Position numbers and translations under genes: made by a program. This document shows positions 6,554-52,317 of a stretch of 62,565 bases of DNA, one piece after another. The stretch is from assembly GCA_024762675.1 (NCBI GenBank), contig JANTGZ010000003.1, forward strand, positions 1 through 62,565. Reading direction: 5' to 3'. The number at the start of each line of letters is the position of its first letter. Position 1 is the stretch's first letter. The notes under the pieces were generated by a model that searched no databases, was not told the DNA's origin, and saw only the letters and a list, made by a program, of their open reading frames with translations. Source of the stretch: Thermodesulfobacteriota bacterium. Its GTDB lineage: Bacteria > Desulfobacterota > Anaeroferrophillalia > Anaeroferrophillales > Tharpellaceae.

Positions 6554-6710
6554 CAACCCAAACCATAATGGATACACAACTTAGTCTTTTATGCCACAAT
6601 CGCGCCTCGGACAGACTATCACCCTTCAATTTTAAGTTTTCACGGCAAAGCTCTATCAAGTAGAGAAGCTTACCCCGATCTACGGGATCAAAAATGATAA
6701 TGTCTTAATC

Positions 6711-20126: not shown

Positions 20127-20141
20127 ATACAAGGAAAAACC

Positions 20142-22130: not shown

Positions 22131-23044
22131 TGCCGCAGGTAGGTCTGCGCATCGATGTTGACACCCTGCGCGGTACCCGGTGCGGGATACCGAATCTACT
22201 CAAACTTTTAGATTGTCATAACATCAAGGCAACTATTTTTTTCTCAGTCGGCCCGGACAATATGGGTCGCCACCTCTGGCGCCTGCTGCGTCCGGCATTC
22301 TTGTTGAAGATGCTGAGGACCCAGGCCACCAGTCTTTATGGCTGGGACATCCTCCTGCGGGGTACCTTATGGCCCGGACCATTGATCGGCAATATCTGCA
22401 GCGACATAATCCACAAGGCCGGTGAGGCCGGTCATGAGATTGGACTGCATGCCTGGGATCATCACCGCTGGCAGAGTCAGCTTGAAAACCTCGACCAGAA
22501 TGCCCTGAATCAAGATCTTACTCGCGGCTACAGACAGCTTACGAGGATACTGGGTATCCCTCCGTCCTGTTTTGCTGCCCCGGCCTGGCGTATCACACCG
22601 ACGGCCCTACAAACGCTTGCGCAATTTCCATTTAATTTCACCTCCGATTGCCGAGGCACTTCTATTTTCAGACCCCAAATAGATAGTACTTCTGAGAGTG
22701 TGAATGAACCCCAACTGCATATTCAGATCCCCAGCACACTGCCTACCTATGATGAGCTTATCGGCCAAAAGTGTACACCTGAAACTTACAACGACTACCT
22801 TCTCGACCTGATCAGACCCGAAAATCTAAATGTTTTAACTATCCATGCCGAGGTCGAAGGCATCTGTTGCCTGCAACTGTTTAGCGATTTTCTCGAGAAA
22901 GCCCGGTCGCGAAAGATTATATTTAAACCCTTAGGTAAGCTCCTCCCGCAAACTACAAAAATAGAAACCACCCCAATCCAACAAAAAAACCTGCCCGGAA
23001 GAGAGGGCTGGATTTCCTGCCAGGATGGAATAGTTGACTGCTAA
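22130..23044 (+). CDS. arnD: Undecaprenyl-phosphate-Ara4FN deformylase
   Basis: GLRIDVDTLRGT, SVGPDNMGRHLWR, HAWDH, TIHAEVEG. Confidence 0.95.
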   Translation: MPQVGLRIDVDTLRGTRCGIPNLLKLLDCHNIKATIFFSVGPDNMGRHLWRLLRPAFLLKMLRTQATSLYGWDILLRGTLWPGPLIGNICSDIIHKAGEAGHEIGLHAWDHHRWQSQLENLDQNALNQDLTRGYRQLTRILGIPPSCFAAPAWRITPTALQTLAQFPFNFTSDCRGTSIFRPQIDSTSESVNEPQLHIQIPSTLPTYDELIGQKCTPETYNDYLLDLIRPENLNVLTIHAEVEGICCLQLFSDFLEKARSRKIIFKPLGKLLPQTTKIETTPIQQKNLPGREGWISCQDGIVDC

Positions 23045-23049
23045 AGTAT

Positions 23050-24798: not shown

Positions 24799-24801
24799 GC
24801 T

Positions 24802-26538
24802 ATGGATGACAAACAAATGGTTGCTGAGACCGTTACATCAGATTTTCACAATGACCCGACAAAATCGTTATCTAGAACAGTCCTCATTCTGGCAGTTATT
24901 ATTATATGTTTCCTCGGAATATTTAATCGTGACCTGTGGACCCCTGATGAACCTCGAGTTGCGGCCATTTCTCTGGAAATGAGCCGCAACGGCAATCTGA
25001 TTATACCCCACCTTGCCGGAAGACCTTTTATTGAAAAACCGCCCCTCTATTTTGCCGTTGCTGCGGGCCTGATACATACCATAGGATCTATAGTCGGCAA
25101 TACCGGGGCCATACGTTTCACTTCAACCCTTTTTGCCCTGGCCACACTACTGGTCTCATTTCTATTGGCAAAACGTTTAAACGGAAAATCCTTCGCCTTT
25201 TTATCCTTAATTATCCTGGGCACCATGGCCGGCTTCGTTGAAAATTTTCACTGGATACGAGTCGACCCCGCCTTAAGTTTTTTCGTGGTTGCTGCCCTTT
25301 GGTGCTTTGCTGAGGGTTACCTTGGTGGGCGAGCCCGCTTCTTAACTTTAGCCGGCCTCTTTGGCGCCGGGGCATTTCTAAGCAAGGGTCTGATCGGACC
25401 GATACTGATCGCACTCCCCTGGACCGGGCTGTTTTTCATTTGGCTAAGAAAGAGAGGGAAAGCCGGTCAAAAAAAAGACTTTTTTATTACGGAACATTTG
25501 TTCGGCATCTTCATTTTCATTTTCATTACCGGACTCTGGATTATCTTGTTAAAAATGACCGGCAGCCCGGAGCTCTGGCATGAATGGTTCTGGGTTAATC
25601 AGGTAGGACGTTTGACCGGCACAGCTGATCTGGGCCATCTTCGCCCCGGCCAACCTTTTTATTACATAACTACATTAGCCCTCTACAGCACACCTTGGCT
25701 GCCTTTGGTGATTGTCTGGTTTGTTCGGGTATGTAAAAGTTCCTGGCGGAAACAAGCTGTTTCTTCAGAGAATCTCTTTTTCTTGCTTTGGGGCCTGGGA
25801 ACCATCCTTTTTTTATCCCTCTCGGTAACCAAACGCAGTATTTATCTCTATCCTGCGCTGCCGGTTTTTGCAATGATGGGAGCAATGGTTTTAAAACAGG
25901 GGTTAACTCGCTGGTTTAAAATTTATGTTACGGCATGGACATTAATATGCGCAGCTATAATGGCTCTTATCACAATCCTTCCGCTAGCTTCCGGACTCTT
26001 CCAGGCCTACGTTCCAGAACGCGTGTTCGGTTGCCTGAGCGCTTTCGGGGTCGACAATTTAATTGCCGGGATGGCTTTCATATATTGTCTCTATCTCATT
26101 TTGAAACGCCGGAAGATAGACCCGGTTTTCCGCTTTACGGCGGTAACGGTCATGATATACATAGTTGCCTTTACGGGCCCCCTGCTGGCCGTTGACCGCG
26201 CCAAGAGCATGCAAGCCGGAATGGAGGCATTTGCCGAACATATAGCAACAGGAAAAAGAGATCGGGTTGCGGGATGGAATTTCAGCGAAACAATGCTGGC
26301 TAATTTCTATTACTACTGCGACTGGTCAGTTCCACAGATCGAAAGTGAAGAACACCTGCAAACAATTTTACAACATAAAGATGACAAGTATGATACAATT
26401 ATCATCAACAAGACCCGTTCCCTTAAAAATCTGCTCAAGTCACCCTATCATGTCATCGCAGAGGGAAATCCACGACACTCCCGCAAAAGCAAAAGACACA
26501 TCTATTGGGTCGAAGGGATTGATTTTACAGGAAAATAA
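24802..26538 (+). CDS. Divergent ArnT-family (GT83) glycosyltransferase
   Basis: LWTPDEPRVAAISLEM, FIEKPPLYF, FLSKGLIG, KRSIYLYPALP. Confidence 0.85.
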   Translation: MDDKQMVAETVTSDFHNDPTKSLSRTVLILAVIIICFLGIFNRDLWTPDEPRVAAISLEMSRNGNLIIPHLAGRPFIEKPPLYFAVAAGLIHTIGSIVGNTGAIRFTSTLFALATLLVSFLLAKRLNGKSFAFLSLIILGTMAGFVENFHWIRVDPALSFFVVAALWCFAEGYLGGRARFLTLAGLFGAGAFLSKGLIGPILIALPWTGLFFIWLRKRGKAGQKKDFFITEHLFGIFIFIFITGLWIILLKMTGSPELWHEWFWVNQVGRLTGTADLGHLRPGQPFYYITTLALYSTPWLPLVIVWFVRVCKSSWRKQAVSSENLFFLLWGLGTILFLSLSVTKRSIYLYPALPVFAMMGAMVLKQGLTRWFKIYVTAWTLICAAIMALITILPLASGLFQAYVPERVFGCLSAFGVDNLIAGMAFIYCLYLILKRRKIDPVFRFTAVTVMIYIVAFTGPLLAVDRAKSMQAGMEAFAEHIATGKRDRVAGWNFSETMLANFYYYCDWSVPQIESEEHLQTILQHKDDKYDTIIINKTRSLKNLLKSPYHVIAEGNPRHSRKSKRHIYWVEGIDFTGK

Positions 26539-28430: not shown

Positions 28431-29108
28431 ATGAAAATCCTGCTCGTCGAAGATGATCCTCAACTGCAAATACAGATACAAAACCTGCTCTCAGAACAGC
28501 GCTATCTGGTCGATACCGCCGCTGATGGAAATCGGGCTCTGGATAAAATCTTTGCCGAGAGTTACGACCTGATTCTCTTAGACATCATGCTGCCTCAAGT
28601 TGACGGACTAACCATTTTACAGGAGATGCGCCGCGCCCACATTATTACTCCGGTGCTCCTCTTGACTGCCAAAGGCTCGGTTGAAGATCGGGTCAAGGGG
28701 CTTGATTACGGAGCCGACGACTATCTTGCCAAGCCCTTTTCGATAGCAGAGCTGCTGGCTCGTATTAGAGCACTGCTACGCCGTCCGGGGCGTGAGTGTG
28801 ATAGTCTCCTGAAGGTTGGCGACATCACCCTCGACACCGTCAGTCGCAAAGTCACAAAGGCCAGGGAAAATCTCGATCTGACCCCCAAGGAGTTTTCCCT
28901 GCTGGAATTCCTCCTCTACAACAAAAATCAGCCGGCTTCCCGCATCACCCTGGCCGAACATGTCTGGGGGGATGATTTCGATCCCTTTACGATGTCTAAC
29001 ACCATTGATGTCCACATTAAAAACCTGCGTCGGAAAATTGATCCTGAATGTGCAAATAGTTCATTAATAAAAACCGTTCGCGGGATCGGCTTCGTGATTG
29101 AAGAGTAA
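28431..29108 (+). CDS. OmpR-family response regulator
   Basis: LLVEDD, LLDIMLP, LLLTAK, GADDYLAKPF, winged helix DVHIKNLRRKI...TVRGIGF. Confidence 0.95.
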   Translation: MKILLVEDDPQLQIQIQNLLSEQRYLVDTAADGNRALDKIFAESYDLILLDIMLPQVDGLTILQEMRRAHIITPVLLLTAKGSVEDRVKGLDYGADDYLAKPFSIAELLARIRALLRRPGRECDSLLKVGDITLDTVSRKVTKARENLDLTPKEFSLLEFLLYNKNQPASRITLAEHVWGDDFDPFTMSNTIDVHIKNLRRKIDPECANSSLIKTVRGIGFVIEE

Positions 29109-29114
29109 TTTTTC

Positions 29115-30524
29115 ATGAAAATTCGCACAAAAATCAGCCTTTGGATTACCAGTGCCGGAATCATCGTCAGCATGGTGTTCTCCCTGATTGTTTTCTATGA
29201 GATGGCTGAGCAGACCTACGAACAGTTAGACGACGAGCTCAAAGCAACCGTTAACAACGTTTTTAAGATAATCAAAAAGAACGAGTTCGAAAACAGTGAC
29301 CAGACCTCTCTGTCAGCGCAAGTTCTTCTCAACAACCAACGCTACTGGATTCGTGCCTTCCGGGCAGGCACGCCGATCTATTCGTCCAGTCTGGCACAAA
29401 TCATTGACCTGCCGCTTAATCCCCGAAAGAAAAGATATTCCGTCAGCGTCAAGATCCCACGAGAAAAGATCGACCTTGATCAAGATCGCTATAATGAGGT
29501 GACATTTCGGGTTCGATCTATAAAGGTTTCCGCCCTGCATGCCCCTCCGGGCTATCACATCTATGCCGCACTGCCCATGGAAGAACTTGAAGAAGAGATC
29601 ATCGAGCTAATCATATTCATCTCTCTGGGACTATTCTTTTCAACCATACTGCTGATTCTTATCAGCTATTTTCTGGCTGGCCATATCCTCCGACCAGTTC
29701 GGAAAATCACCAACCTTGCCCAGGAAATCAATGAAAACGATCTGACCCGCCGCATCCTCTTAAACTCCAGTCAAGATGAACTCTATGATCTCTCTTTTGC
29801 CTTAAACCAGATGCTTGATCGCCTGCAGCGCTCTTTTACTCGCCAGAAACAGTTTCTCGCTGACGCAGCCCATGAGCTCAACACCCCGATGACCAGTGTC
29901 CAGCTCTTTATGGAACAGGGCCTGCTTAACCGCGAACTGCCGGCCCCTTTTTACAAAGGTCTACAGCAACAGCAGCAGGTTTTGATGCGTATAAGACGTC
30001 TCCTGCACGACCTTATGACCCTCTCATGGCTGGAACTCGGACGTAAACTCAAACCCGAAACCTTTGACCTGAAAGCCGCAACCGCATCCGTGATTGAAGA
30101 TTTCAAACCCTTGCTAGAGTTAAAAAATATTGACTTGGCCAGTTCTCTGCCGGAAAGCCTGAACTACTTAGGAGACCCCGATCAACTCCATCGGGTTCTG
30201 GTCAATATTATCGACAATGCCATCAAATATAATTTACAATCAGGAAAACTTATTGTCAGACTGGAAAAATTACCGGAAACGATTCGGCTTACGGTAAGCA
30301 ACACCGCACTGCCGATTGCGGAAGCGGATCTGGAGCAGGTTTTTGAGCAGTTTTATCGAGTCGAAAAATCACGTTCTAAAGAGTTTGGCGGCTGTGGCCT
30401 GGGTCTGACCATCGTCAGGGAGGTTGTCAGACTGCACGGCGGCCAGGTATCTCTTACAAACGAGCCGCCGGATATGATCAACTTGCGCATTACCCTTCCC
30501 CTAGCTTTCAAAAAACCAGCATAA
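29115..30524 (+). CDS. HAMP sensor histidine kinase
   Basis: Two TM segments, HAMP, H-box ADAAHELNTP, N-box NIIDNAIKYN, FEQFYR, GCGLGL. Confidence 0.95.
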   Translation: MKIRTKISLWITSAGIIVSMVFSLIVFYEMAEQTYEQLDDELKATVNNVFKIIKKNEFENSDQTSLSAQVLLNNQRYWIRAFRAGTPIYSSSLAQIIDLPLNPRKKRYSVSVKIPREKIDLDQDRYNEVTFRVRSIKVSALHAPPGYHIYAALPMEELEEEIIELIIFISLGLFFSTILLILISYFLAGHILRPVRKITNLAQEINENDLTRRILLNSSQDELYDLSFALNQMLDRLQRSFTRQKQFLADAAHELNTPMTSVQLFMEQGLLNRELPAPFYKGLQQQQQVLMRIRRLLHDLMTLSWLELGRKLKPETFDLKAATASVIEDFKPLLELKNIDLASSLPESLNYLGDPDQLHRVLVNIIDNAIKYNLQSGKLIVRLEKLPETIRLTVSNTALPIAEADLEQVFEQFYRVEKSRSKEFGGCGLGLTIVREVVRLHGGQVSLTNEPPDMINLRITLPLAFKKPA

Positions 30525-37923: not shown

Positions 37924-38712
37924 ATGTCGCAGCAGATAAAAATAACCACAAACCACCTGCCTCCTCCCTGGTCGGAACTCTCATACACAGAGATCATGGC
38001 CCGCCCTAACGGTCAGCTGATAAATGGTGGCCGGTCATCCTGGGTCTATCGCTTTGTTGACGGGGAGAACATCTGTTTTCTCAAACGCTATACCTATCAG
38101 AAAATTCACTGGCGCTACTGCTGGCAGAAATCGCAGGTTCGACGTGAATTTGAAAACCTGGAGAAGATCAAGCGGGCTCAACTAGGATGCAAGACGATCG
38201 AAATTCTAGCTTATGGGGAGCAGCGTCGATGCCGCATCCTGACCGATGCCTTCCTCTTGAGTCGTGAGGTGGCTGACAATGAACGACTCTCACTCTTTCT
38301 TTGTTCAAACAGAGATCATCCGCAACGACAGTTGGTAGTCAAGAACGTAATCCAACTTGGACAAAAGATTATCGAGAGTGATCTGGCGATCACCGACCTC
38401 TTTTTCCGGAATCTTGTCGTGGTTCCGAAAAATGCCGATCTCCATCTACTTGATGTTCAATATTGCGACCGCAACCGACAGCGGGCCGAGATAAAAACTT
38501 ACCCCCAACTCTGGTCCAACATCTTGCTTTTCTTTACCCTGGAAGAGCAGAACCAGGCGGCCAAGATGCTGACCCCTCATCTACCATACAACCTCGATGA
38601 ACTGAACAAAAGAGCTCAACAATTTATTTATAAAGAGAAAAAACGCAAAGCGGCTGAACTGGCCTTCATAGAAAATTATCAATTTTCATCAGACCTCAAG
38701 GAGTCAAACTAA
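37924..38712 (+). CDS. Lipopolysaccharide kinase-like protein (Kdo/WaaP/InaA family)
   Basis: FLKRY, RREFENL, AYGE.R, DLFFRNL, LLDVQ. Confidence 0.65.
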   Translation: MSQQIKITTNHLPPPWSELSYTEIMARPNGQLINGGRSSWVYRFVDGENICFLKRYTYQKIHWRYCWQKSQVRREFENLEKIKRAQLGCKTIEILAYGEQRRCRILTDAFLLSREVADNERLSLFLCSNRDHPQRQLVVKNVIQLGQKIIESDLAITDLFFRNLVVVPKNADLHLLDVQYCDRNRQRAEIKTYPQLWSNILLFFTLEEQNQAAKMLTPHLPYNLDELNKRAQQFIYKEKKRKAAELAFIENYQFSSDLKESN

Positions 38713-40777: not shown

Positions 40778-41110
40778 GTGGAGATAAAAGAGTTGAAAAG
40801 TGAGGGTGAAGCCCTGGTCGCAACCCTCTCAGGTCGTATGGACGCGATGACAGGCGGTGAGTTTACGGATCAGATGGGTATCTGGATAGAGGCCGGCCTG
40901 GAAAACTTCATAATTGACTGCAGCAAACTTGACTATATCAGCAGCGCCGGATTACGAGCCATCCTGATGGCTGCAAAAAGAATCAAAAGCCTGAATGGTT
41001 CTCTGCAACTTGCAGCCTTACAGGAGAGTGTAAACAACGTCTTCAGTATCTCCGGTTTTGACAAAATTATCCCGATTAAAGAAACCCTGGAAGATGCCCT
41101 CAACCAATAG
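40778..41110 (+). CDS. STAS-domain anti-sigma factor antagonist (RsbV/SpoIIAA-like)
   Basis: LSGRMDA, IDCSKLDYISSAGLR (phospho-Ser motif), VFSISGF. Confidence 0.93.
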   Translation: MEIKELKSEGEALVATLSGRMDAMTGGEFTDQMGIWIEAGLENFIIDCSKLDYISSAGLRAILMAAKRIKSLNGSLQLAALQESVNNVFSISGFDKIIPIKETLEDALNQ

Positions 41111-41537
41111 CGAACAGATTGCGAACGATTATCTTGAGCTGGCGGCCACGCTGAAAAACCTACCTCTTTTCATGGCCTTCGTCACCGATCGCGCCCGACA
41201 ATCTGGGTTCAGCTCGAAACGGATAGCGGAGGTCGAACTGGTTATCGAAGAGGCTCTAGTCAATATCATTGACTACGCCTATCCCGACCGGGAGGGCTGG
41301 CTGAGACTGAACTTAAAGACCGGAGCGGAGGGCGGACTCAAGCTTGAGATCAAGGACCGGGGGGTCGCTTTTAATCCTTTAGAGATTGAAGATCCCGACC
41401 TTAGAGCCGAACTCATGGAGCGACCGGTCGGCGGCCTCGGGGTTTTCCTGATTAAGAAGTTTAGCGACAATCTCTTCTGGAAACAACAGGGTGACGAAAA
41501 CTGCCTGACAATCATTTTTAAAAAACGCCATGCCTAG
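41094..41537 (+). CDS. RsbW/SpoIIAB-like anti-sigma Ser kinase (HATPase_c_2)
   Basis: ELVIEEALVNIIDYAY, IKDRGVAFNP, RPVGGLGVFLI. Confidence 0.92.
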   Translation: MPSTNSEQIANDYLELAATLKNLPLFMAFVTDRARQSGFSSKRIAEVELVIEEALVNIIDYAYPDREGWLRLNLKTGAEGGLKLEIKDRGVAFNPLEIEDPDLRAELMERPVGGLGVFLIKKFSDNLFWKQQGDENCLTIIFKKRHA

Positions 41538-42084
41538 AAACAGACCTCTAACAAGAATTTTATTCTTTATCGGCCTGTTCTCCCTGTTGCTAGGCTCGGG
41601 CCACTTTAAAGCCGAGGCCGCCCCTTTACAAAAAGTAACTTTTATTCCTCTCTGGCTTCCCCAGGCCCAATTTGCCGGCTATTACGTTGCCCAAGAGAGC
41701 GGTATCTACAAAGAACACGGCCTCAACTATCCCGAAGATGGCATCTATGCCTTAAAAGAGACTTGGTTACAAAAACCGGATCTCTGCCAGGCTTTTGTTA
41801 AAGCCTCACTGAAAGGCTGGCAACGGGCCTTTGCTGAACCTGAACTAGCTCTCGACATCACCATGCGCAACCTTAAAAGAGAGCATATTATCTCCAACCG
41901 CATTCATCAAAAGTGGATGCTTGAGCGCATGCGCGACATCATCCAGCCAGCGGCTGAAAAAAACCGTATCGGGCAGTTAAAAGAGGATGATTTTCAGCGC
42001 CTGGTAACTGGTTTAAAGAGACAGAGTCTCATCGAAAAAATTCCCAACTTTAACGATTTCTATCAACCTGTGGCGGGAGAGTAA
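41530..42084 (+). pseudogene. NMT1/THI5-like periplasmic binding protein with a large in-frame internal deletion
   Basis: Signal peptide and W.PQAQFAGYYVA..GIY..HGL are fused directly to the C-terminal segment NYPEDGIY...AFVKASLKGW..A. Only 184 aa, against roughly 300 or more for the family. Confidence 0.7.
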
Positions 42085-42085
42085 G

Positions 42086-44035
42086 ATGATTTTTTTACGC
42101 CACCAGGGAATTGCCTTCAAATTGAGCCTTTGGGTCTTAAGCGGGGTGACTCTGGTCATCGCCGCCATTTTGACCTTAAACTACCATAGCACCCGACGTT
42201 TGATGGTCGAAAAGATCGAAGATAACGCCTTGAATCTGGCCCAGTCGACGGCCAATCGGATCAACACCCTTTTAAAAGCAGCAGAAAAGATCCCCGCCGG
42301 AGTCGCCCTGACTATTGCCGAACTCGAACCCGACGATACCGAACTTAAGAGCCTGCTGGCAAACCTACTTGAGCAGAACCCGGAACTCTTCGGGATCGCG
42401 GCCGCCTTCGCCCCCAAACCTGATAGCGCTGCCAATAACCTTAAGCTCTACTCCCGCTACTTCATCCGCTCTTATGACCGCATCAAAGAGAGCCCAATCA
42501 ACTACGATTACCGCTCTCACGACTGGTACCAGATCCCCAAAGTACTCGATCAACCAATCTGGAGCGAACCCTACTTCGGCGAGAGCGGCGGCATCGTCAT
42601 GGCCAGCTATTCGCACCCTTTTTACCGGGAAAAAGAGGGGAGTAAAAAGTTTGCCGGTATCGTCTGTGTCGATCTAAGCCTGAACTGGCTGCGCAATGTC
42701 GTCTCCTCTCTGAAAATCGGCGACACCGGCTACGCCTTTCTCATTACCCGCAACGGTACTTTTGTTACCCACCCCAATCTCGATCTGATCATGAATGAGA
42801 CTATCTTCAGTATCGCCGAAGCCCGCAACAATCCCGAAATCCGTAAGATCGGTCGCCATATGATCGCCGGTGAAAAAGGTTTTACCGCTTTTACCGGCCT
42901 GACCAACAACCAAAAATACTGGATGGTCTACACCCCACTACCGGCAAATGGCTGGTCACTAGGCGTGCTTTTCCCTCAAAACGAGCTGATGGCCGACATC
43001 CATGACTTAACTAAGATCATGCTCGGCTTAGGCCTTGGCGGTTTTTTCCTGATTATGCTGGTCATCCTGCTGATCTCAGGTAAGATCACCAAACCTCTGC
43101 GGGCTCTGGCCGAAAGTGCTGATGAGATCGCTACAGGAGACCTGGAAGGCGCAATTCCAATACTCAAAAGTGAAGATGAAGTCGGCCGCCTGGCTCTCTC
43201 ATTTGCCGGAATGCAGCAATCTCTCAAAGAGTACATCAAAAATCTGACCGAAACCACGGCCGTCAAAGAGCGCATTGAAAGTGAGTTAAATATCGCCAGA
43301 GATATCCAGATGGGCATCCTTCCCAAAATATTCCCAGCCTTTCCGTATTTGCCTGAATTCGACCTCTACGCTACCATAAAACCGGCCCGCGAGGTCGGTG
43401 GCGACCTCTACGACTTCTTTATGATCGACGATCAACATCTCTGCTTTACGGTCGGCGACGTCTCCGGCAAAGGGGTGCCGGCGGCCCTCTTCATGGCGAT
43501 CACACAAACCTTGATCAAAACTCAAGTTAAAGCCCAGCCCAAACGCTCCTCCACCGCCACACTGCATCAGGTCAATAACGATCTCGCCCGAGACAACCCG
43601 TCAATGATGTTTGTCACCCTCTTTATAGGGATTTTCAATATCGTCACCGGTGAGTTGGAGTACTGTAACGGCGGCCACAACCCGCCTTACCGACTCTCAC
43701 CCCATAAAACCGACCCGGTACAAGTGCTGCCGACAACCGACGGCATCGCCTTAGGGGTTATGGAGGATTTTACTTTTACCGCCAAACGCATAACCCTGAC
43801 CCCAGGCGAAGCCCTTTTTGTCTTTACCGACGGCGTTACCGAAGCCATGAACAAGCGCGATGAGCTCTTCACCGAAGAGCGCCTCGAAAAAATTCTGGCC
43901 CCTTTAACAAAACAACCGGTACAAGAGATCACTGATCAGTTAATACAGGAGATCGAAATCTTTGCCGACGGCGCCCCCCAAGCCGATGACATCACCATGC
44001 TGGTGCTGCGCTATTCAGGTAAGGAGGCGAAGTAA
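42086..44035 (+). CDS. Membrane Cache-HAMP-PP2C (SpoIIE/RsbU-type) phosphatase
   Basis: Two TM segments around a dCache region (WYQIPK..., WSEPY), HAMP, EVGGDLYD, VGDVSGKGVPAA, FTDGVTEA, DDITML. Confidence 0.93.
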   Translation: MIFLRHQGIAFKLSLWVLSGVTLVIAAILTLNYHSTRRLMVEKIEDNALNLAQSTANRINTLLKAAEKIPAGVALTIAELEPDDTELKSLLANLLEQNPELFGIAAAFAPKPDSAANNLKLYSRYFIRSYDRIKESPINYDYRSHDWYQIPKVLDQPIWSEPYFGESGGIVMASYSHPFYREKEGSKKFAGIVCVDLSLNWLRNVVSSLKIGDTGYAFLITRNGTFVTHPNLDLIMNETIFSIAEARNNPEIRKIGRHMIAGEKGFTAFTGLTNNQKYWMVYTPLPANGWSLGVLFPQNELMADIHDLTKIMLGLGLGGFFLIMLVILLISGKITKPLRALAESADEIATGDLEGAIPILKSEDEVGRLALSFAGMQQSLKEYIKNLTETTAVKERIESELNIARDIQMGILPKIFPAFPYLPEFDLYATIKPAREVGGDLYDFFMIDDQHLCFTVGDVSGKGVPAALFMAITQTLIKTQVKAQPKRSSTATLHQVNNDLARDNPSMMFVTLFIGIFNIVTGELEYCNGGHNPPYRLSPHKTDPVQVLPTTDGIALGVMEDFTFTAKRITLTPGEALFVFTDGVTEAMNKRDELFTEERLEKILAPLTKQPVQEITDQLIQEIEIFADGAPQADDITMLVLRYSGKEAK

Positions 44036-44112: not shown

Positions 44113-45459
44113 ATGAACCTTCAACAACGACGAAATGCAAAACTCACCATAAGAGATGACCTGAACTTTCTCTCCACGGTTCAGGATTTTATCGAAAATA
44201 CGGCACTCACATTCGGCCTCGGCCAGAACGAGGCCCTGGCCCTGACTCTGGCCGGCGAGGAGATCTTCAACTACCTCTGCACAAGCGTCAAACCCATGGC
44301 TGAGATTGAAATCAGCTGTTATGAGGGTGGCTACTATGCGGCTCTCAACTTCAATCTGCCAATTCAAAATTTTGCCCTGCGGGCTTTCAATCTGACCGCA
44401 ACTATCAACATAGACGACGACAAAAGTCTTGACGAAATGGGCTTGGTCATCGCCTCCCGCATGGTCGATCACCTACAGATAAGCCAAAGCGACAGCGGCC
44501 GACTACAACTCTCTCTGCGCAAAGAAAAAAAATATCCGAAAGCGGCTGAAAACAACCGGACAGCTAGCACTCCACTGACGGAAGAATTCTCAATCGTCAC
44601 GCCCGATGCTGAGGAACTGAAATTTTTCATCAGCGAAAGTCGCCACTGCACAGCACCGGATCTTCTACCTCAGGAGTTTTGTTATCCCGGCAAAATTGTC
44701 GACATGGTCAACGCCGGCGACTACCGAGCCGCAATCGTTCGTGATGCCGGCGGCCGTATCGGCGGCGGCATCATCTGGTTCTGGAGTTCAAGTAAAATGG
44801 TGGAGTGCAACGGTCCCTACATTCTGGCCGAGGATGCAAGCCCTGCGATTTCTCAGAATCTTCGCCAAAGCATGGCTGAAGCCCTGCTTGAACATTGTCT
44901 TAATGCAATTGCCAAGAGTTCGGCAGTCGGCCTCCTCAATCGTTCACCGGGATCAGATCTGCCACGGCACCATTTTGAATCTCTGGGCAGCGCTTTGGAG
45001 TTTCACAACACCACCGCACCCACCGAGATAGAAGCTCTTTTTCGCCAAATGCAGGAAGACCCCGGGGCTATCGCCTGGGCCCATCCCGATCTCGAACCCT
45101 TTTTACGCCGTGAATACCAACGCCTCACCCTGCCCCGCGAGATTCGTTTAATCAGTGACAGTGGCGAAAGCCCGGCTGATTTTTCGGTTCTCGCCAGCGA
45201 ATTTGACCGTTCCCGTCAAAAGGTAACGCTACAACCTCTATGGGCTGGTAACGATATGGAAAAGAGTATCGCTGATCACTTAGCCCTCTTTGCCAATGAA
45301 GAACTCAACAACATCTTCTTTGTCGTGGATCTCGGTAAAAGCTGGCAGGCCGCCTCCTTTCCAGGCCTCTCTAAAAACGGTTTCACTCCGCGCCTGCTAT
45401 TGCCCTATGGCGGTAAAGGTGATCTTTTACTCCTGCAGAAGATCGGGGCTTCATCATGA
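44113..45459 (+). CDS. Uncharacterised protein: degenerate RsbW-like N-terminus plus putative GNAT-like C-terminal region
   Basis: N-terminus L.TVQDFIE..A..FGL....LTLAGEEIF..., EMGLVIASRMVD resembles HATPase_c_2 without the N/G boxes. The C-terminal GNAT-like call is tentative. Confidence 0.5.
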   Translation: MNLQQRRNAKLTIRDDLNFLSTVQDFIENTALTFGLGQNEALALTLAGEEIFNYLCTSVKPMAEIEISCYEGGYYAALNFNLPIQNFALRAFNLTATINIDDDKSLDEMGLVIASRMVDHLQISQSDSGRLQLSLRKEKKYPKAAENNRTASTPLTEEFSIVTPDAEELKFFISESRHCTAPDLLPQEFCYPGKIVDMVNAGDYRAAIVRDAGGRIGGGIIWFWSSSKMVECNGPYILAEDASPAISQNLRQSMAEALLEHCLNAIAKSSAVGLLNRSPGSDLPRHHFESLGSALEFHNTTAPTEIEALFRQMQEDPGAIAWAHPDLEPFLRREYQRLTLPREIRLISDSGESPADFSVLASEFDRSRQKVTLQPLWAGNDMEKSIADHLALFANEELNNIFFVVDLGKSWQAASFPGLSKNGFTPRLLLPYGGKGDLLLLQKIGASS

Positions 45460-46580
45460 ACCCGATCGCCGCCCCTTTAGAAGATCTGGTTCCGGAATAT
45501 ATCAGGCACTTTGAAGCCTATATACCGAGTAAACCCGATGACGAGTTAAAAAAACTCTACGGCTGCGACCCACTCTATCGCCTCAACAACAACGAAAACC
45601 CGCTCGGTCCACCTGCTGCCGCCCGACCTATAATTGAACATTTTGCTGCGCCCGGGGCCGCAATCTACCCCAGCGGTGACGCTTACCATCTGCGCCGGGC
45701 CCTGGGTGAAAAATTCTCTATGAATCCCGATCAGTTTCTGGTCGGCAACGGCGCCAACGAAGTAATCGCCTTCGTCATCAAAGCTTTCTGCCAGGAGGGT
45801 GACAATATCGTTACCGCCGACAAGACCTTTGCCGTCTATGAATGGATCGCTGAATTTTCCGGTTTCAGCGCCCACCTGACCCCACTGCTCGATTTTGGTT
45901 TCGATGCCGAAGCCATGCTAAATGCAATCGACAAACGCACCAAGATCCTCTTTATCTGCAACCCCAATAATCCGACCGGCACCTATTGGAACCGGGAACA
46001 ACTGATCAACTTTATGGATCGGGTCAACGGTCGCCAAATCGTCGTCATTGACGAAGCTTATTGCGAATTCGTCGAACAGGAGGATTTTCCCGATGCGATG
46101 GAACTAATACGCCAATATCCCAATCTGGTCGTCTTTCGTACCTTCTCAAAGATGTACGCGTTAGCCGGACTGCGCATCGGATATCTGGCCGGTTCTCTGG
46201 AAGTAGTCGACATCATCCGCCGCACCTGCGTCGTCTACTCCGTCAACACCCTGGCCCAGAGAGCGGCGCTCAAAGCTTTAAATGATGATCAACACATCAT
46301 TGACACCCGCAACCACATCAGAAAAGAGAAAGCCCGGCTTCTGCCCTTACTCAAAAAATTGGGCCTGAAATACCAATCCGGTGAAGGCTGTTTCGTCATG
46401 ATCCACCTGCCGATGAGTGACACTCTGGCCTATCGCAAGCTGATGGCCAGAGGTGTCATGATCCGCAGCATGACCGGTTTTCGTTTCCCCAACTGGATCC
46501 GAGTCAGCATCGGATCCAGTCAAGCGATGACGGCTTTTGTTAAAGCCTTAACGGAACTGATCGAACAAACATCACAATAA
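45456..46580 (+). CDS. HisC/CobD-like fold-type-I PLP enzyme (aminotransferase or decarboxylase)
   Basis: LNNNENPLGP, GNGANE, NPNNPTG, DEAY, RTFSK.Y.LAGLRIGY. ATGA overlap with the previous gene. Confidence 0.88.
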   Translation: MNPIAAPLEDLVPEYIRHFEAYIPSKPDDELKKLYGCDPLYRLNNNENPLGPPAAARPIIEHFAAPGAAIYPSGDAYHLRRALGEKFSMNPDQFLVGNGANEVIAFVIKAFCQEGDNIVTADKTFAVYEWIAEFSGFSAHLTPLLDFGFDAEAMLNAIDKRTKILFICNPNNPTGTYWNREQLINFMDRVNGRQIVVIDEAYCEFVEQEDFPDAMELIRQYPNLVVFRTFSKMYALAGLRIGYLAGSLEVVDIIRRTCVVYSVNTLAQRAALKALNDDQHIIDTRNHIRKEKARLLPLLKKLGLKYQSGEGCFVMIHLPMSDTLAYRKLMARGVMIRSMTGFRFPNWIRVSIGSSQAMTAFVKALTELIEQTSQ

Positions 46581-46662
46581 TATTATGCCAAAAATCTCTT
46601 GTAAATCATTGTGGTTAACTATAGGCTTAGAGCTTGTCTTTCTTTCGGAAACGGTTGTGAGC

Positions 46663-46907
46663 AGGCCGAGTTCCTCATAATTCTGCCGGAAACCGATGTT
46701 GATGGAACTAGCAACCTGGCTGAAAAACTGCGGCTAAAACTAGAGAACTCTACCCTCGAACACAAATCCGGAACGCTCGGCATTACCATGTCAATCGGGG
46801 TCAGCCAATATCTCCCGAATGTGGATATTGATAACTCTATTAAAGCGGCCGATGATGCACTCTATCGGGCTAAGAAAGCTGGGAGAAACAGAGTAGCCTG
46901 TGCGTAA
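46663..46907 (+). pseudogene. C-terminal fragment of a GGDEF diguanylate cyclase
   Basis: Starts at EFLIILPET, cut inside the GG(D/E)EF motif; TMSIGVS, ADDALYRAKKAGRNRV. Confidence 0.85.
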
Positions 46908-46967: not shown

Positions 46968-48350
46968 ATGACAGACAGCCGCATAAACATGGGTGAAGGG
47001 AGGGTCTTTACTGTCCTTTTGCGCCTCGGTGCGCCGGCCATGGTCTCGATGTTTTTTTCGACCCTCTATGCCCTGGTCGATACAATTTTCGTCGCCAAAC
47101 TCGGAACCATTCCCTTGGCAGCCATGTCTTTGGCCGTGCCGTTATTCTTTGTCGCCATGTCTCTAAGCAAAGGTGTGGCGGTCGGGACTCTGACAACAAT
47201 GAGTCACGCCCGAGGCCACGGGGATCACGAACAGGCCCAAAAAATCGCCAAGGCGGCTTACCCGCTTACCTTTCTCTTAATCAGCGTTTTATTATTACTG
47301 ACTTTCCGAACCTTCAACCAACCACTTTTTGCCCTCTTTGATAAAGATCCAAAACTTCTAAGCGAAGCCGCCGTCTATACCCGCTGGCTGGCCTTTAGTT
47401 TCCCTTTCATCGGTTTTGCGATGCTCTGCGAAGCCATCTTTTTCAGCTATGGCGACACCAAAACCCCGATGCTGGCGATGATCGCCGGCAATCTTCTCAA
47501 TATGGTTCTTGATCCGCTCCTGATTTTCAGCTGTGGACTGGGAGTGGAAGGAGCTTCACTGGCCTCACTGCTAGGCTGGGCTTTGTCGGGCGCTATTATG
47601 TGGCGCGCTCTCACGAATAAGGGCTTCGACTGTCCCGGTCTGAAATTTTCTCGTAAGCATTTTAAAACCTGGTCCCAAATCGCTATATTGGGAGCCCCGG
47701 TCACCTTATCGATGCTGATTATCCCGATTTCAACTGCGGCTCTCAATTACCTCCTTGCGGATTTTGGTCCAGCCTATGTCGGGGCCTGGAATTTGAGTTA
47801 CAGAATCGAGCAAATGGTGGTTTTGCCACTATATGGTCTCTCCGGTGCCTTGATCACATTTACCGGATTCAATCTCGGCTTTCAACGTTTAGACCGTATC
47901 ATCGACGGATGTAAAGCAGCGCTGCTCGGCTGTTACATCCTCGTCATTCCAACCATCATTATTTTCTGGTTTCAAGCCGATGAACTGATTGAGATTTTCA
48001 AACCCTCCCCGGAGGTGTTGGAGCATGCCATCTTCGCGCTCAAAATCGCCGGTCTCGGCTATCTCTTTGCTCCTTTTGAACTGATCATGACAAGTCTGTC
48101 ACAAGGAATCAAACAACCGAAATACTCGCTCCTGATCAATTGTCTACGCCTATTGGTTCTAAGGGTTCCATTGGCTCTGTTTTTTTCAAAAATTTGGGAC
48201 GGCCACGGAATCTACATAAGCCATCCCGTCTCTTTAACCATCTCCGGTTTGGTCAGCTTCATAATCTTGCGCCATCTTTTAAGGCAATGGCCTGAAAAAG
48301 AGGAAATACTAGACAAAAAGCCACAATCAGAACTTATTCAGGAAGTATAA
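46968..48350 (+). CDS. MATE-family efflux transporter
   Basis: LYALVDTIFVAKLG, GDTKTPM, NMVLDPLLIF...GVEGASLA. Confidence 0.92.
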   Translation: MTDSRINMGEGRVFTVLLRLGAPAMVSMFFSTLYALVDTIFVAKLGTIPLAAMSLAVPLFFVAMSLSKGVAVGTLTTMSHARGHGDHEQAQKIAKAAYPLTFLLISVLLLLTFRTFNQPLFALFDKDPKLLSEAAVYTRWLAFSFPFIGFAMLCEAIFFSYGDTKTPMLAMIAGNLLNMVLDPLLIFSCGLGVEGASLASLLGWALSGAIMWRALTNKGFDCPGLKFSRKHFKTWSQIAILGAPVTLSMLIIPISTAALNYLLADFGPAYVGAWNLSYRIEQMVVLPLYGLSGALITFTGFNLGFQRLDRIIDGCKAALLGCYILVIPTIIIFWFQADELIEIFKPSPEVLEHAIFALKIAGLGYLFAPFELIMTSLSQGIKQPKYSLLINCLRLLVLRVPLALFFSKIWDGHGIYISHPVSLTISGLVSFIILRHLLRQWPEKEEILDKKPQSELIQEV

Positions 48351-49413: not shown

Positions 49414-50511
49414 ATGACCACAGAAACCATTGACACCCTGATTATCGGAGGTGGCCTCAGCGGTATCTATGCCGCCTATCTTCTGGCTCAAAGAGATGAA
49501 TCTTTTGTCCTTCTCGAAGCCCGGGAACGTCTCGGCGGCAGGGTTTTGAGCCCCGAATATGAGAATTTTTTTTCTGATCTCGGCCCTTCGTGGTACTGGC
49601 CTGATATTCACCCGAAAATGGCACAGCTTATTGAGGAGCTCGACCTTAAAGGTTTTCGCCAGTATGAAGAAGGTTACGGCCGTTTTCAACGCCCCAACGG
49701 GGAGGTCCAGACAGTCAGTGGCTACGCGACAGAACCCCTCTCCTGGCGCCTGCAAGGCGGCATGATGGCCCTGATCACAAAACTCTGCAAAAAGATCCCT
49801 GAAAATGCCACCAAACTCAACCACCCGGTCTGCCACATCGAAAAAACGGGTAGTGAAGCTTTTGTCAGCGTCGGCGAGCTGGAAAGAGAACCCTGGACCC
49901 GATTCAGAGCCAAAAAAATAATTCTCGCCCTGCCCCCGCGGCTTGCCGCCTCAACTATTCTCTTTACCCCCGACCTGCCTGACAACCTGACTCAGGCGAT
50001 GCTTAAAATCGGCACCTGGATGGCAGGCCAGGCTAAATTTACCGCCCTCTATGAAAAACCTTTCTGGCGCCAGGCAAAACTCTCGGGACAGGCCTTCAGC
50101 CAGCGCGGGCCCATGGGCGAACTCCACGATGCCTCAAACAACGGACAAGGCCCCTTCGGGCTGACCGGTTTTGTCGGTATCCCGGCAGCCCAACGCAGCC
50201 ATCAACAACAGCTCATAAAGGCAATCCTCTTCCAGCTTGAACTCATCTACGGTAAACCAGCAGGCCAGCCAACAACCCTTTTCTATAGAGATTGGGCTCA
50301 CGAACAGTTTACCGCCACCAAACTCGACCAACCCCCAATGTATGAACACCCAATCTATTCCCCCCCGGCCCGGCAAACCTCATTCTGGGACGGCATCATC
50401 CATTTCGCCGGCACTGAAACGGCCACCAAAAACGGCGGCTACCTCGAAGGTGCCCTGGGCGCCGCCGAACGAGCCGTGGTACTACAAACAACCAAGTTAA
50501 CTCGCATTTAA
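49414..50511 (+). CDS. Flavin monoamine oxidase-family protein
   Basis: IIGGGLSG, LLEARERLGGR, DLGPSWYWP, HFAGTETA...GGYLEGAL. Confidence 0.9.
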   Translation: MTTETIDTLIIGGGLSGIYAAYLLAQRDESFVLLEARERLGGRVLSPEYENFFSDLGPSWYWPDIHPKMAQLIEELDLKGFRQYEEGYGRFQRPNGEVQTVSGYATEPLSWRLQGGMMALITKLCKKIPENATKLNHPVCHIEKTGSEAFVSVGELEREPWTRFRAKKIILALPPRLAASTILFTPDLPDNLTQAMLKIGTWMAGQAKFTALYEKPFWRQAKLSGQAFSQRGPMGELHDASNNGQGPFGLTGFVGIPAAQRSHQQQLIKAILFQLELIYGKPAGQPTTLFYRDWAHEQFTATKLDQPPMYEHPIYSPPARQTSFWDGIIHFAGTETATKNGGYLEGALGAAERAVVLQTTKLTRI

Positions 50512-50650: not shown

Positions 50651-51001
50651 ATGGATATTTCAAACACATTGACAGATGGTGCTATTCTTGCCGAAACCGG
50701 AAAACGGATTGCGCAGCGTCGACTTGAACTTCAGTTGACCCAGGCGGAGATGGCAAAAGAGGCCGGCATCTCCAAGCGTACGGTTGAGCGAATTGAAGCC
50801 GGAGGCTCGGCCCAGATGTCGACGATTATCCGGATATTACGAGTCCTTGATCTTTTGCCGGGTCTTGACCACCTGATCCCCGAACCCGGCCCCAGGCCTA
50901 TAGATCTGCTTAAACTAAAAGGTAAAGTGCGGCAACGGGCCTCGTCAAGCCGAAAGCCTGATCAAGCCAACAAAAAATGGTCCTGGGGTGACGACAAATG
51001 A
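50651..51001 (+). CDS. hipB: XRE/HTH antitoxin (HipB-like)
   Basis: RR...LTQAEMAKEAGISKRTVERIEAG; overlaps the hipA start. Confidence 0.8.
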   Translation: MDISNTLTDGAILAETGKRIAQRRLELQLTQAEMAKEAGISKRTVERIEAGGSAQMSTIIRILRVLDLLPGLDHLIPEPGPRPIDLLKLKGKVRQRASSSRKPDQANKKWSWGDDK

Positions 51002-52317
51002 GCACGGTTGCCGAGGTTAGACTCTGGGGCCGCACCATTGGCGCAGTTTCCATTGTTGAGGGTGCTGATCTTGCCGCCTTTGAGTACGATCCGAGCTTTG
51101 CCAAAAGCGGCATTGAGATCTCGCCCATCATGATGCCGCTCTCCAACAGGGTCTACTCCTTCCCTGAACTATCACAAAAAACCTTCCACGGCCTGCCTGG
51201 ACTACTGGCGGACTCGCTCCCCGACAAGTTCGGAAATGCTCTTATTGACGCCTGGCTCGCGACCCAGGGACGGAGTCCGGAATCGTTTAATGCCGTCGAA
51301 CGCCTATGCTATACCGGCACACGCGGTATGGGGGCGCTGGAGTTTGCTCCGGCAACCGGGCCTAAAGTCCGGCAGGCCACCAGCATTCACATTGATAAGC
51401 TGGTCGATCTCGCAGCGGAGGTCCTAACCCAGCGCCACAATCTGAAGGCTTCATTTGCAGACAAAAACCGAGAGCGGGCTCTAAAGGATATTCTCAAAGT
51501 CGGCACTTCAGCCGGCGGAGCTCGGGCAAAAGCAGTAATTGCCTGGAATAGATCGACCAATGAAGTTCGCTCAGGGCAACTTCCGGCGGATAAGGGGTTT
51601 GAACACTGGCTGATCAAATTTGATGGCGTCAGCGGTAATCGTGACAAGGAACTCGATGACCCAAAAGGTTACGGCCTCATCGAATATGCCTACGCAAAAA
51701 TGGCAAGCGACGCCGGAATAACTATGAGCGAATGCCGAATTTTCACAGAAAATGATAGAGATCACTTTATGACACGGCGTTTTGACCGCCTTGCCGGCGG
51801 AGAAAAACTCCACATGCAGTCACTTTGCGCAATGGCCCACTACGATTATAATCTCGCCGGGGCTTACGCTTACGAACAGGCACTTCTCATTATCAGAGAA
51901 CTCGGCCTGCCAATGAGTGCGATTGAAGAGATGTTTAGGCGTATGGTCTTTAATATCAGCGCCCGCAATCAGGATGATCATGTCAAAAATATCGCCTTCT
52001 TAATGGACAAAACCGGCGCCTGGTCTCTTGCACCTGCTTTTGACATGACTTACAGCTTTAATCCTGCCGGAGCCTGGACGGCCAACCATCAGATGTCAAT
52101 GAACGGTAAACGTGACGGTTTCAAACTGGAAGATTTCAAAGCTTGCGCAAAAGCCGCCTCAATGAAACGCGGACGTGCACAAACAATTGTCAACGAAGTG
52201 CTCGAAACGGTCTCACGCTGGCAAGAATATGCTGACGAAGCAGGAGTTTCCGGAAATTTACGTGACCGGATTCAGAAGACTCTACGGATGAGAGAATTAG
52301 GAATGAAAAATTCTTAA
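50998..52317 (+). CDS. hipA: HipA-family toxin kinase
   Basis: N-terminal couple domain (AFEY...LADSLPDKFG), GTSAGGARAKA, NQDDHVKN, LAPAFD. Confidence 0.92.
   Translation: MSTVAEVRLWGRTIGAVSIVEGADLAAFEYDPSFAKSGIEISPIMMPLSNRVYSFPELSQKTFHGLPGLLADSLPDKFGNALIDAWLATQGRSPESFNAVERLCYTGTRGMGALEFAPATGPKVRQATSIHIDKLVDLAAEVLTQRHNLKASFADKNRERALKDILKVGTSAGGARAKAVIAWNRSTNEVRSGQLPADKGFEHWLIKFDGVSGNRDKELDDPKGYGLIEYAYAKMASDAGITMSECRIFTENDRDHFMTRRFDRLAGGEKLHMQSLCAMAHYDYNLAGAYAYEQALLIIRELGLPMSAIEEMFRRMVFNISARNQDDHVKNIAFLMDKTGAWSLAPAFDMTYSFNPAGAWTANHQMSMNGKRDGFKLEDFKACAKAASMKRGRAQTIVNEVLETVSRWQEYADEAGVSGNLRDRIQKTLRMRELGMKNS

Follow-up and report, generated by a model that had tools for sequence, protein, structure and literature searches.

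A degenerate RsbW-like domain joined to a GNAT-like module and paired with an aminotransferase beside a partner switch in Desulfobacterota

The locus and the gene family

The window analysed here is the whole of a 62,565-nucleotide stretch of DNA from a Thermodesulfobacteriota bacterium (GenBank assembly GCA_024762675.1, contig JANTGZ010000003.1). The gene under study, hereafter the target, is found directly behind the genes of an RsbW-type partner switch and directly in front of a gene for a HisC-like aminotransferase (Table 1). Its product consists of three parts, which are an N-terminal domain with the RsbW/SpoIIAB fold, a first lobe with the GNAT fold, and a second lobe. A ribosome-binding site with the sequence AAGGA is located 8 nt before the ATG start codon at 44113. 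An alternative, longer frame begins with the TTG at 44065, but the alignments of homologues start with residue 1 of the protein that begins at the ATG. The upstream phosphatase gene ends 77 bp before the target, and a scan of the + strand of this gap for promoters and terminators found no such site, which is at most a weak hint of co-transcription. At its other end, the stop codon of the target overlaps the start codon of the aminotransferase gene in the sequence ATGA at 45456-45459.

Table 1. Coordinates of the target gene, its domains and the neighbouring genes of the cluster
Feature	Coordinates	Strand	Basis or remark
Single-domain STAS protein of the anti-sigma antagonist type, motif DYISSAGLR	40778..41110	+	STAS E 1.4e-19; TIGR00377 74.6 bits
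RsbW-type serine kinase with intact N, G1 and G2 boxes	41058..41537	+	HATPase_c_2 E 3.5e-23
184-amino acid NMT1/THI5-like remnant with hydrophobic N-terminus	41530..42084	+	PF09084 E 9.5e-9, positions 175-215 of 216
dCache-HAMP-PP2C membrane sensor phosphatase, RsbU-like	42086..44035	+	SpoIIE E 2.4e-48; dCache_1 E 5e-22; HAMP E 4.8e-14
Target gene	44113..45459	+	Open reading frame with ATG start, 448 amino acids; its family is conserved and uncharacterised, with proteins of about 440 amino acids
RsbW/SpoIIAB-like GHKL domain with degenerate N, G1 and G2 boxes (predicted pseudo-kinase)	44113..44547	+	Residues 1-145; fold, hhalign and motif counts
GNAT-fold lobe 1, without a Q/RxxGxG/A-type loop	44581..45066	+	Residues 157-318; VIA-align and Foldseek
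Second lobe with GNAT-like strand/helix order	45067..45450	+	Residues 319-446; DSSP order of the model, paralogy
HisC-family aminotransferase paralogue	45456..46580	+	Aminotran_1_2 E 3.9e-59; TIGR01141 300.5 bits
MATE exporter	46968..48350	+	MatE E 3.7e-50; stands where most related clusters have a major facilitator superfamily transporter
346-amino acid tandem GNAT paralogue ('GNAT2') with Y-R-G-G-x-G loop	48361..49401	+	AlphaFold2 pLDDT 86.9; GNAT matches with E 1.7e-8 and weaker
Flavin amine oxidase	49414..50511	+	Amino_oxidase E 3e-41; found in 1 of 80 related loci (L001)

Homologues of the target were recognised at E <= 0.001 in 150 of 7999 scored candidates, and at least 120 homologues among the matches listed have lengths of 402-514 amino acids, a query coverage of 63-100% and identities of 40-82%. 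Their source names are 'hypothetical protein', 'anti-sigma regulatory factor (Ser/Thr protein kinase)' and 'ATP-binding protein', and a precomputed PF13581 assignment accompanies 8 of the 120 homologues among the matches listed. When 1.84 billion cluster representatives were searched exhaustively with HMMER, 366 representatives of the family at 50% identity had E <= 0.001, and 317 and 226 of these are retained at cut-offs of 1e-10 and 1e-30, respectively.

Within the phylum of the window, family members are present in 22 of 201 evenly sampled genomes, with one copy each, and these represent 15 of 144 genera. A 96%-complete genome from the genus of the window in this sample has no copy, and the target is the single copy in the window's own genome. 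One family member (G044:C79:8966-10255) contains a single in-frame TGA, which could mean that the copy is broken, that the sequencing erred or that the site is recoded. NCBIfam and PADLOC gave no family for the target or for its 346-amino acid paralogue, and thus nothing points to a defence system. For comparisons of gene context, a pattern scan that used one genome per species gave 184 confirmed relatives, and the best 80 loci were examined with up to 8 kb on each side. There are 34 loci among these 80 with at least 7.5 kb on both sides, which are called fully flanked below.

An RsbW-like domain without its ATP-binding motifs

The likeness of the target to RsbW is visible only through Pfam, profile-profile comparison and fold. 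The Pfam family HATPase_c_2 matches residues 16-135 of the target over profile positions 4-125 of 127 with an E value of 0.0087, and the score of 16.5 bits lies under the curated cut-off of 27.4. The same family matches 25 of 35 members of the target family at E <= 0.01, the best with an E value of 4e-8. A comparison by hhalign of the target-family profile with a reference alignment of 19 RsbW-type kinases drawn from related clusters returned a probability of 96.8% and an E value of 2.8e-10 over 129 columns. A profile for RsbW made from the loci also matches the target open reading frame in four loci (E 3e-6 to 5e-5), and a profile of the N-terminal domain matches all 80. When the family profile was compared by sequence with all chains of the Protein Data Bank, the only hit was a chance match to ATP synthase subunit c (E 0.83).

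An AlphaFold2 model of the full target, built on the family alignment, has a mean predicted local distance difference test (pLDDT) score of 86.6 and a predicted template modelling score of 0.85. Foldseek places SpoIIAB, RsbW and UsfX at the top of its ranking for this model, with E values of 2.6e-7 to 4e-5. Residues 5-142 superpose on structures of these proteins (1l0o, 1til, 6m37 and 8ih8) in VIA-align with Z scores of 14.6-15.8, root-mean-square deviations of 1.7-3.4 Å and 104-136 aligned residues. An initial annotation made from the sequence had noted that the N-terminal 140 or so amino acids parallel RsbW and had called for a structure search; both the profile comparison and the model agree with that view, and the GHKL fold is present.

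In the 19 true RsbW kinases, positions E49, E50, N54, D85, G87 and G110-G113 are invariant. The asparagine of the N box is a ligand of Mg-ATP in GHKL kinases. The RsbW of the window reads EEALVNII at this box and the target reads EEIFNYLC. In the hhalign register, position 54 of the target family is occupied by tyrosine in 161, histidine in 61 and phenylalanine in 12 of 251 members, and asparagine is not among the six commonest residues at this place. The glycine position of the G1 box holds glycine in only 13 of 251 members, and its aspartate position holds aspartate in 73 of 251. The GGLG sequence of the ATP lid is represented in the target by a five-residue deletion followed by M-G-L. The positions that the family does keep are A47, E49/E50, F92-N93-x-T95, G110-L111, A114 and R116, and the helix that carries E49/E50 is nearly invariant.

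These counts extend to 251 family members what had been read from the target by eye, namely a rewritten N box (tyrosine, histidine or phenylalanine in 234 of 251 members at the aligned asparagine position), a vanished DxG box and a replaced GGLG. The proposal that this is a catalytically dead kinase domain is likewise upheld as far as sequence motifs can tell, as all three ATP-binding signatures are lost. Because the lost motifs have established roles in GHKL proteins, Mg-ATP binding in the manner of RsbW can almost certainly no longer take place in this domain.

A two-lobed GNAT-like module shared with a neighbouring gene

Structure searches find the GNAT fold in the first lobe, as had been proposed for the C-terminus. 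VIA-align superposes residues 156-322 on the GNAT proteins PAT/BAR, ArsN, YncA, RimI, Ard1 and SpeG with Z scores of 9.7-11.0 over 131-153 aligned residues, and the identities are only 6-13%. The corresponding Foldseek E values are 1e-4 to 1e-3. The bleomycin N-acetyltransferase BlmB (2zw6), a tandem GNAT protein, can be aligned with the target over 290 columns, though poorly (root-mean-square deviation 11.6). The second lobe also appears to be GNAT-like, as suggested by the order of its elements in the model and by its homology to the second lobe of a paralogue.

That paralogue is the 346-amino acid protein encoded further downstream in the window, with which the C-terminal part of the target had been said to share loose features. 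It has 1058 homologues, all unnamed, and its model matches the same GNAT structures as lobe 1 of the target. The relationship between the two is not significant by BLASTP (E 0.38), and small profiles gave an E value of 0.028 and a probability of only 1.8%, though the alignment was collinear over 275 columns. Deep profiles of 251 and 156 sequences, respectively, align collinearly over 273 columns with a probability of 92.9% and an E value of 3.7e-7, versus 0.43 over 37 columns for the reversed control. When lobes are compared separately, the second lobes of the two families match each other best (probability 94%, E 1.5e-7), the first lobes match with an E value of 5e-4, and cross-lobe pairs reach only 0.13-0.57. 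A terminal motif, G(F/Y)x5LP, is common to both proteins and reads GFTPRLLLP in the target and GYFLGGVLP in the paralogue. The likeness is therefore real but remote, and the target consists of a dead RsbW domain to which the whole two-lobe body of its 346-amino acid neighbour is attached in divergent form. The look-alikes of residues 150-448 in a protein atlas are hypothetical Thermodesulfobacteriota proteins of 347-348 amino acids (score 0.90), an observation that is a lead only.

The pyrophosphate-binding loop of GNAT enzymes has the pattern Q/R-x-x-G-x-G/A and lies between β4 and α3. In lobe 1 of the 346-amino acid paralogue, the β4-α3 loop has the conserved sequence Y-R-G-G-x-G (Y103 in 148, R104 in 154, G106 in 128 and G108 in 153 of 156 sequences), and it lies at the site of this pyrophosphate loop. 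Close relatives of the window's target carry an insertion in the β4-α3 loop of lobe 1. In the second lobe, both families have a well-conserved G-x-D loop, with G379 in 248 and D381 in 242 of 251 sequences of the target family and the equivalent residues in 155 and 152 of 156 sequences of the paralogue. The paralogue weakly matches Acetyltransf_3 in 3 of 21 members and Acetyltransf_1 in 2 of 21, and no acetyltransferase profile of NCBIfam matches the target. The GNAT-like module of the target may transfer an acyl group or may only bind a ligand or partner.

A constant aminotransferase partner

There is a HisC-like aminotransferase gene directly downstream of the target, on the same strand, in all 80 loci, and its product is 62-89% identical to that of the window. 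The gap between the two genes, measured between stop-to-stop frames, is at most 12 bp in 77 loci and 124-171 bp in the other three. Thus, the tightest partner of the target is the aminotransferase and not the partner switch. A single 813-amino acid protein (P0175) is a seamless fusion of the two, wherein the target-family part extends to about residue 436 and is followed by the HisC-like aminotransferase from its residue 6. A word-based search of longer proteins found no other fused form at E <= 0.001 among the 7999 candidates, which is weak evidence.

The linked aminotransferase passes the TIGR01141 cut-off (300.5 versus 276.55 bits). A role as the housekeeping hisC is ruled out by the presence of better hisC genes elsewhere, which in the window's own genome is a 328-bit copy on another contig and in five of five other genomes are copies of 334-353 bits, compared with 295-303 bits for the linked ones. 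Because of these better copies, the linked gene is, judged by profile scores, a dedicated paralogue. The best hisC of the window's genome (G000:C82:7367-9204, L081; 328 bits) is itself directly followed by a partial aminotransferase match (89.6 bits), and this tandem pair is unrelated to the target cluster.

The partner switch and its linkage to the target

The switch of the window is complete by its predicted domains, as it comprises a STAS protein with the conserved serine, an intact kinase and a PP2C phosphatase. Residues Y53, S55, S56, G58, L59 and R60 of the STAS protein are invariant in 35 of 35 sequences. The true start of the RsbW kinase probably lies downstream of the TTG at 41058. 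A small NMT1/THI5-like open reading frame is wedged between the kinase and phosphatase genes; it occupies the same place in L001, L005, L008 and L012, has relatives in 11 of the 80 loci, and represents either a periplasmic-binding protein that has been truncated or a small accessory of the sensor. None of the 51 window proteins scanned (13 + 38) matches a sigma-factor family of Pfam, which agrees with the earlier suggestion that the output of this switch is not a sigma factor.

A STAS gene lies within 8 kb of the target in 37 of the 80 loci and in 22 of the 34 that are fully flanked, and RsbW is present within the 8-kb flank in 22 of 80, a count that is limited by the flank. In five genomes that were checked, there are only two or three STAS genes of the cluster type in 4.6-7.1 Mb, and therefore we estimate the chance of finding one within 8 kb at about 1%. 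The best-scoring STAS gene is the cluster's own in four of these five genomes. The PP2C gene adjoins STAS-RsbW in four of five as well, with the contig confirmed for three and assumed for the fourth. The gene order STAS-RsbW-(NMT1 remnant)-PP2C-target, with the switch upstream, is characteristic of the window, L001, L005, L008 and L012. In most other loci the switch is located about 7 kb downstream of the target, and the linkage thus outlasts rearrangement.

Predicted docking of the STAS protein

A complex was modelled from the family alignment of target residues 1-150 and that of the STAS protein, in three runs with three controls. The predicted docking scores are 0.77, 0.77 and 0.78, versus 0.01, 0.09 and 0.00 for the controls. 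The mark that the model passes is reached by 116 of 157 solved complexes and by 2 of 215 mismatched pairs, a calibration that is rough here, with own alignments used. The runs share at least 96% of their contacts, and the pLDDT of the partners is at least 90. On the STAS side, the predicted interface is made up of residues 22-24, 52-60 (which form the phospho-serine loop) and 84-92; on the side of the target, it is made up of residues 17-24, 39-53 and 106-117. In the model, S55/S56 of the STAS protein face E49/E50, F52-N53 and G110-I113 of the target, and what is left of the N and G2 boxes lies on this face of the target. The docking model supports STAS binding and is no proof of it.

The wider gene cluster

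In most loci, the target-aminotransferase pair is followed by genes for the large, Fe-S and flavin adenine dinucleotide subunits of a molybdenum enzyme, and then by genes for a major facilitator superfamily (MFS) transporter, the 346-amino acid GNAT protein, the STAS protein and RsbW. Among the 34 fully flanked loci, the molybdenum large subunit is found in 29, the MFS transporter in 27, the 346-amino acid GNAT in 25, STAS in 22, RsbW in 12 and PP2C in 4. The counts for RsbW and PP2C are cut by the flank limit, because STAS already sits some 7.1-7.5 kb downstream. In 21 of the 26 loci with both genes, the 346-amino acid GNAT gene is the immediate upstream neighbour of STAS. The molybdenum enzyme of the related clusters is of the xanthine dehydrogenase type, and it scores under all equivalog cut-offs of NCBIfam (best pucD, 536 versus 784 bits), so that no substrate can be named for it.

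Some local features of the cluster were also recorded. Between the aminotransferase and MATE exporter genes of the window, a 98-amino acid open reading frame (46611-46907, + strand) matches only the last half of GGDEF (positions 82-161 of 161, E 6e-13) and looks like the remnant of a diguanylate cyclase; it has a relative of 73% identity in L001. In the complete chromosome of L044, the target is preceded at 13-7750 (+ strand) by genes for a 1906-amino acid non-ribosomal peptide synthetase, an amino-acid permease and a 4'-phosphopantetheinyl transferase. The synthetase has two adenylation regions, a condensation domain, carrier domains and a terminal reductase. There are hints, therefore, that the target cluster is tied to a small non-ribosomal product in some genomes.

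Possible roles of the target

The explanation that we favour, although belief and doubt are in balance for it, is that the target is a receptor for STAS, through which a partner switch without a sigma factor is coupled to a unit of GNAT-like protein and aminotransferase. In favour of it are the domain architecture, the loss of the kinase motifs, the linkage to STAS that outlasts rearrangement, the docking model and the constant aminotransferase partner. The dCache-HAMP-PP2C phosphatase and RsbW kinase of the cluster would set the phosphorylation state of the STAS protein. In its unphosphorylated form, this protein would bind the dead kinase domain through its phospho-serine loop, in the way that SpoIIAA docks on SpoIIAB. 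The dead domain could not phosphorylate the docked STAS protein, and hence there would be no release by that route. Docking would put the attached GNAT-like module and its aminotransferase partner into a different state. The unit under control would probably be the GNAT-like protein together with the aminotransferase, because the aminotransferase gene directly follows in every locus. In this way the switch would control not a sigma factor but a metabolic step of an accessory pathway, to which the aminotransferase, the molybdenum enzyme or (in the window) the amine oxidase, the exporter and the 346-amino acid GNAT may contribute.

Several observations weigh against such a receptor. There are 12 loci among the 34 fully flanked ones that have no STAS, RsbW or PP2C gene within 8 kb, and one switch-less genome has its three STAS genes at least 145 kb away. 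The initial annotation had offered the target as the missing output of the switch, and this idea fares unevenly: STAS is linked in 22 of 34 loci, but there are the switch-less loci, and the closest partner of the target is the aminotransferase (80 of 80). The fused 813-amino acid protein is the single form of its kind, and it could be due to a one-base error at the ATGA overlap. The docking pass may reflect likeness rather than binding by this copy, because the geometry resembles the solved SpoIIAA-SpoIIAB and RsbV-RsbW complexes. The interface residues are not significantly more conserved than the remainder of the domain (mean top-residue frequency 0.68 versus 0.60, one-sided p = 0.12). Of the STAS-binding domain that had been proposed, what stands is a prediction, drawn from the docking model (0.77 versus 0.09) and from gene linkage. 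The claim that an enzyme is placed under control fares worse. The loop of target lobe 1 (positions 239-251) is variable or gapped and has no conserved glycine in 251 sequences, in place of the Y-R-G-G-x-G of the paralogue, and acetyltransferase families of Pfam match none of 35 target-family members at E <= 0.01. Because it has neither a signature of a coenzyme A loop nor a Pfam acetyltransferase match, the regulated 'enzyme' may not be one.

The same observations bear on the other ways in which the domain might act. The invariant aminotransferase (80/80), the lack of a switch near 12 of 34 fully flanked loci, the nonsignificant interface conservation and the fact that the 346-amino acid paralogue rather than the target adjoins STAS in 21 of 26 loci would all suit an N-terminal domain that does no more than provide structure, mediate oligomerisation or bind the aminotransferase. 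The target would then be a constitutive subunit or enzyme of the pathway, and the switch would act elsewhere, on the 346-amino acid GNAT, a distant sigma factor or transcription. We consider this somewhat unlikely, given that STAS is strongly enriched beside the family despite there being only two or three such genes per genome, that all 80 loci retain the RsbW fold with a nearly invariant E49/E50 helix, and that the docking model passed. It is unlikely, in our judgement, that the switch operates in cis with a GNAT instead of a sigma factor. In such a switch, the GNAT-like module, and through it the aminotransferase, would be kept in an off state by the dead RsbW domain of the same protein, as sigma B is by RsbW, until dephosphorylated STAS protein frees them. 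By the Rosetta-stone logic of the fusion, such an arrangement would imply that the free RsbW of the cluster binds the free 346-amino acid GNAT in trans.

RsbW and SpoIIAB proteins are dimers, and the target domain is homologous to the cluster's own RsbW, whose genes co-occur in 22 of the 80 loci (a flank-limited count). Perhaps, then, the dead domain pairs with the true RsbW kinase instead of the STAS protein, in a heterodimer that tethers the kinase to the GNAT-like/aminotransferase unit or blunts it. There is a precedent in Mycobacterium smegmatis, where RsbW3 binds RsbW1 in yeast two-hybrid and co-purification experiments and has no kinase activity, a heterodimer is assumed, and RsbW3 is proposed to blunt RsbW1 (PMC7693655). 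We regard this pairing as quite unlikely for the target, because the STAS docking model is far above its controls and because the conserved residues E49, E50, G110, L111 and R116 lie on the face that is predicted to meet STAS. It is highly improbable that the domain, with its unusual motifs, still works as a serine kinase or ATPase and phosphorylates STAS or another substrate. The retained GHKL fold, the conserved E49/E50 and G110-L111, and the names 'anti-sigma regulatory factor (Ser/Thr protein kinase)' and 'ATP-binding protein' given to some relatives would be in keeping with activity. However, the replacement of the N-box asparagine by tyrosine, histidine or phenylalanine in 234 of 251 members, the survival of the G1 glycine in only 13 of 251 and the shortening of the lid by five residues argue otherwise, and none of the lost positions varies among the 19 true RsbW kinases from these clusters.

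Relation to known systems

A close parallel to the target as a STAS receptor is the pairing of SpoIIAB or RsbW with SpoIIAA or RsbV in Bacillus (1l0o, 1til, 1th8, 6m36 and 6m37). The target shares with these kinases the fold, sequence homology and the predicted docking face, and its gene likewise has those of a STAS protein, a kinase and a PP2C phosphatase as neighbours. Unlike them, it lacks the N-box asparagine, the G1 glycine and the GGLG lid, carries a 300-amino acid GNAT-like module and has a separate, intact RsbW in its cluster; the scan of window proteins, in addition, found no sigma factor.

The tandem GNAT protein BlmB (2zw6) and the single-domain amino-acid N-acetyltransferases PAT/BAR, ArsN, YncA and SpeG superpose on lobe 1 with Z scores of about 10-11. 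In contrast to these proteins, the target has only 6-13% identity, no Q/RxxGxG/A-type loop in lobe 1 and no Pfam acetyltransferase match. Rv1364c of Mycobacterium tuberculosis (3ke6) likewise has an RsbW-type domain within a multidomain protein (Z 13.0 to the target), but it fuses parts of the switch, RsbU and RsbW, to each other, whereas the RsbW-like domain of the target is fused to a GNAT-like module that is not part of a switch.

Mycobacteria also offer kinase-negative relatives, UsfX/RsbW1 and RsbW3 (8ih8 and 8jzt), which have the RsbW fold and still take part in partner switching (PMC7693655). The UsfX structures are among the best fold matches of the target (Z 14.6-15.1). These mycobacterial proteins are single-domain and act on a sigma factor or on another RsbW, and none has a GNAT fusion or is paired with an aminotransferase. 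A switch with an enzyme as its output is represented by SiaABCD of Pseudomonas aeruginosa (6kko), wherein the PP2C phosphatase SiaA, the kinase SiaB and SiaC act on the diguanylate cyclase SiaD (PMC8457831 and PMC7647112). SiaB is a fold match to the target (Z 11.3), and the window phosphatase weakly matches the SiaA model (74 bits versus a cut-off of 700). The small partner of the Sia system binds its enzyme directly, whereas the proposed receiver here would be a dead kinase domain and the output a GNAT-like/aminotransferase pair. STAS proteins with unknown targets other than sigma factors do exist, such as SypA and BtrV (PMC8256260). Literature searches, outside of which most subscription journals lay, gave no paper in which an RsbW-like domain is fused to a GNAT module or linked with an aminotransferase.

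Other features of the window

Elsewhere in the window there is a run of genes (18013-26535, + strand, with 28431-30521) that resembles the lipid A aminoarabinose (Arn) pathway. It includes a DegT-type aminotransferase, a GT2 glycosyltransferase, a formyltransferase-epimerase fusion, a polysaccharide deacetylase and two PMT_2 transferases, and it is followed by LptF/G and by an OmpR-type response regulator with a HAMP histidine kinase. An RND efflux system at 866-6428 (+ strand) consists of an outer membrane factor, an HlyD-type adaptor and an AcrB-type pump. At 37924-38712 (+ strand) is a gene for a 262-amino acid protein with no Pfam family and a faint likeness to RfaP, a lipopolysaccharide heptose kinase (E 0.051). 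It is followed, just upstream of the switch, by genes for a PEMT-type methyltransferase and a MATE exporter, a combination that is also found upstream in L008. Directly after the cluster, at 50651-52317 (+ strand), lies a toxin-antitoxin-type pair composed of a HipB-like helix-turn-helix protein and a HipA-like kinase (HipA_C E 2.1e-51).

Implications

Partner-switching modules are very common outside the Firmicutes, and the output of many of them is unknown because no sigma factor is encoded nearby. The target family is a concrete candidate for such an output, in which the receiver would derive from a dead copy of the switch's own kinase, would carry a GNAT-like body fused to it and would be made along with an aminotransferase. 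If the domain instead works in cis on its own module, a whole Desulfobacterota pathway would be gated post-translationally by a periplasmic dCache sensor. That pathway would comprise the aminotransferase, the molybdenum hydroxylase or amine oxidase, the exporter and two GNAT-type proteins, and the family would provide the first case in which the receiver of a partner switch is a pseudo-kinase domain fused to the module that it controls.

If the target is indeed a STAS receptor, partner switches could gate metabolism directly, and the family would add a further bacterial pseudo-kinase that serves as a docking module. Should the GNAT-like module also lack activity, the target would serve as an adaptor that is a pseudo-enzyme twice over. 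The same reading, if true, would provide a handle on an uncharacterised conserved gene cluster of sulfate-reducing and syntrophic Desulfobacterota.

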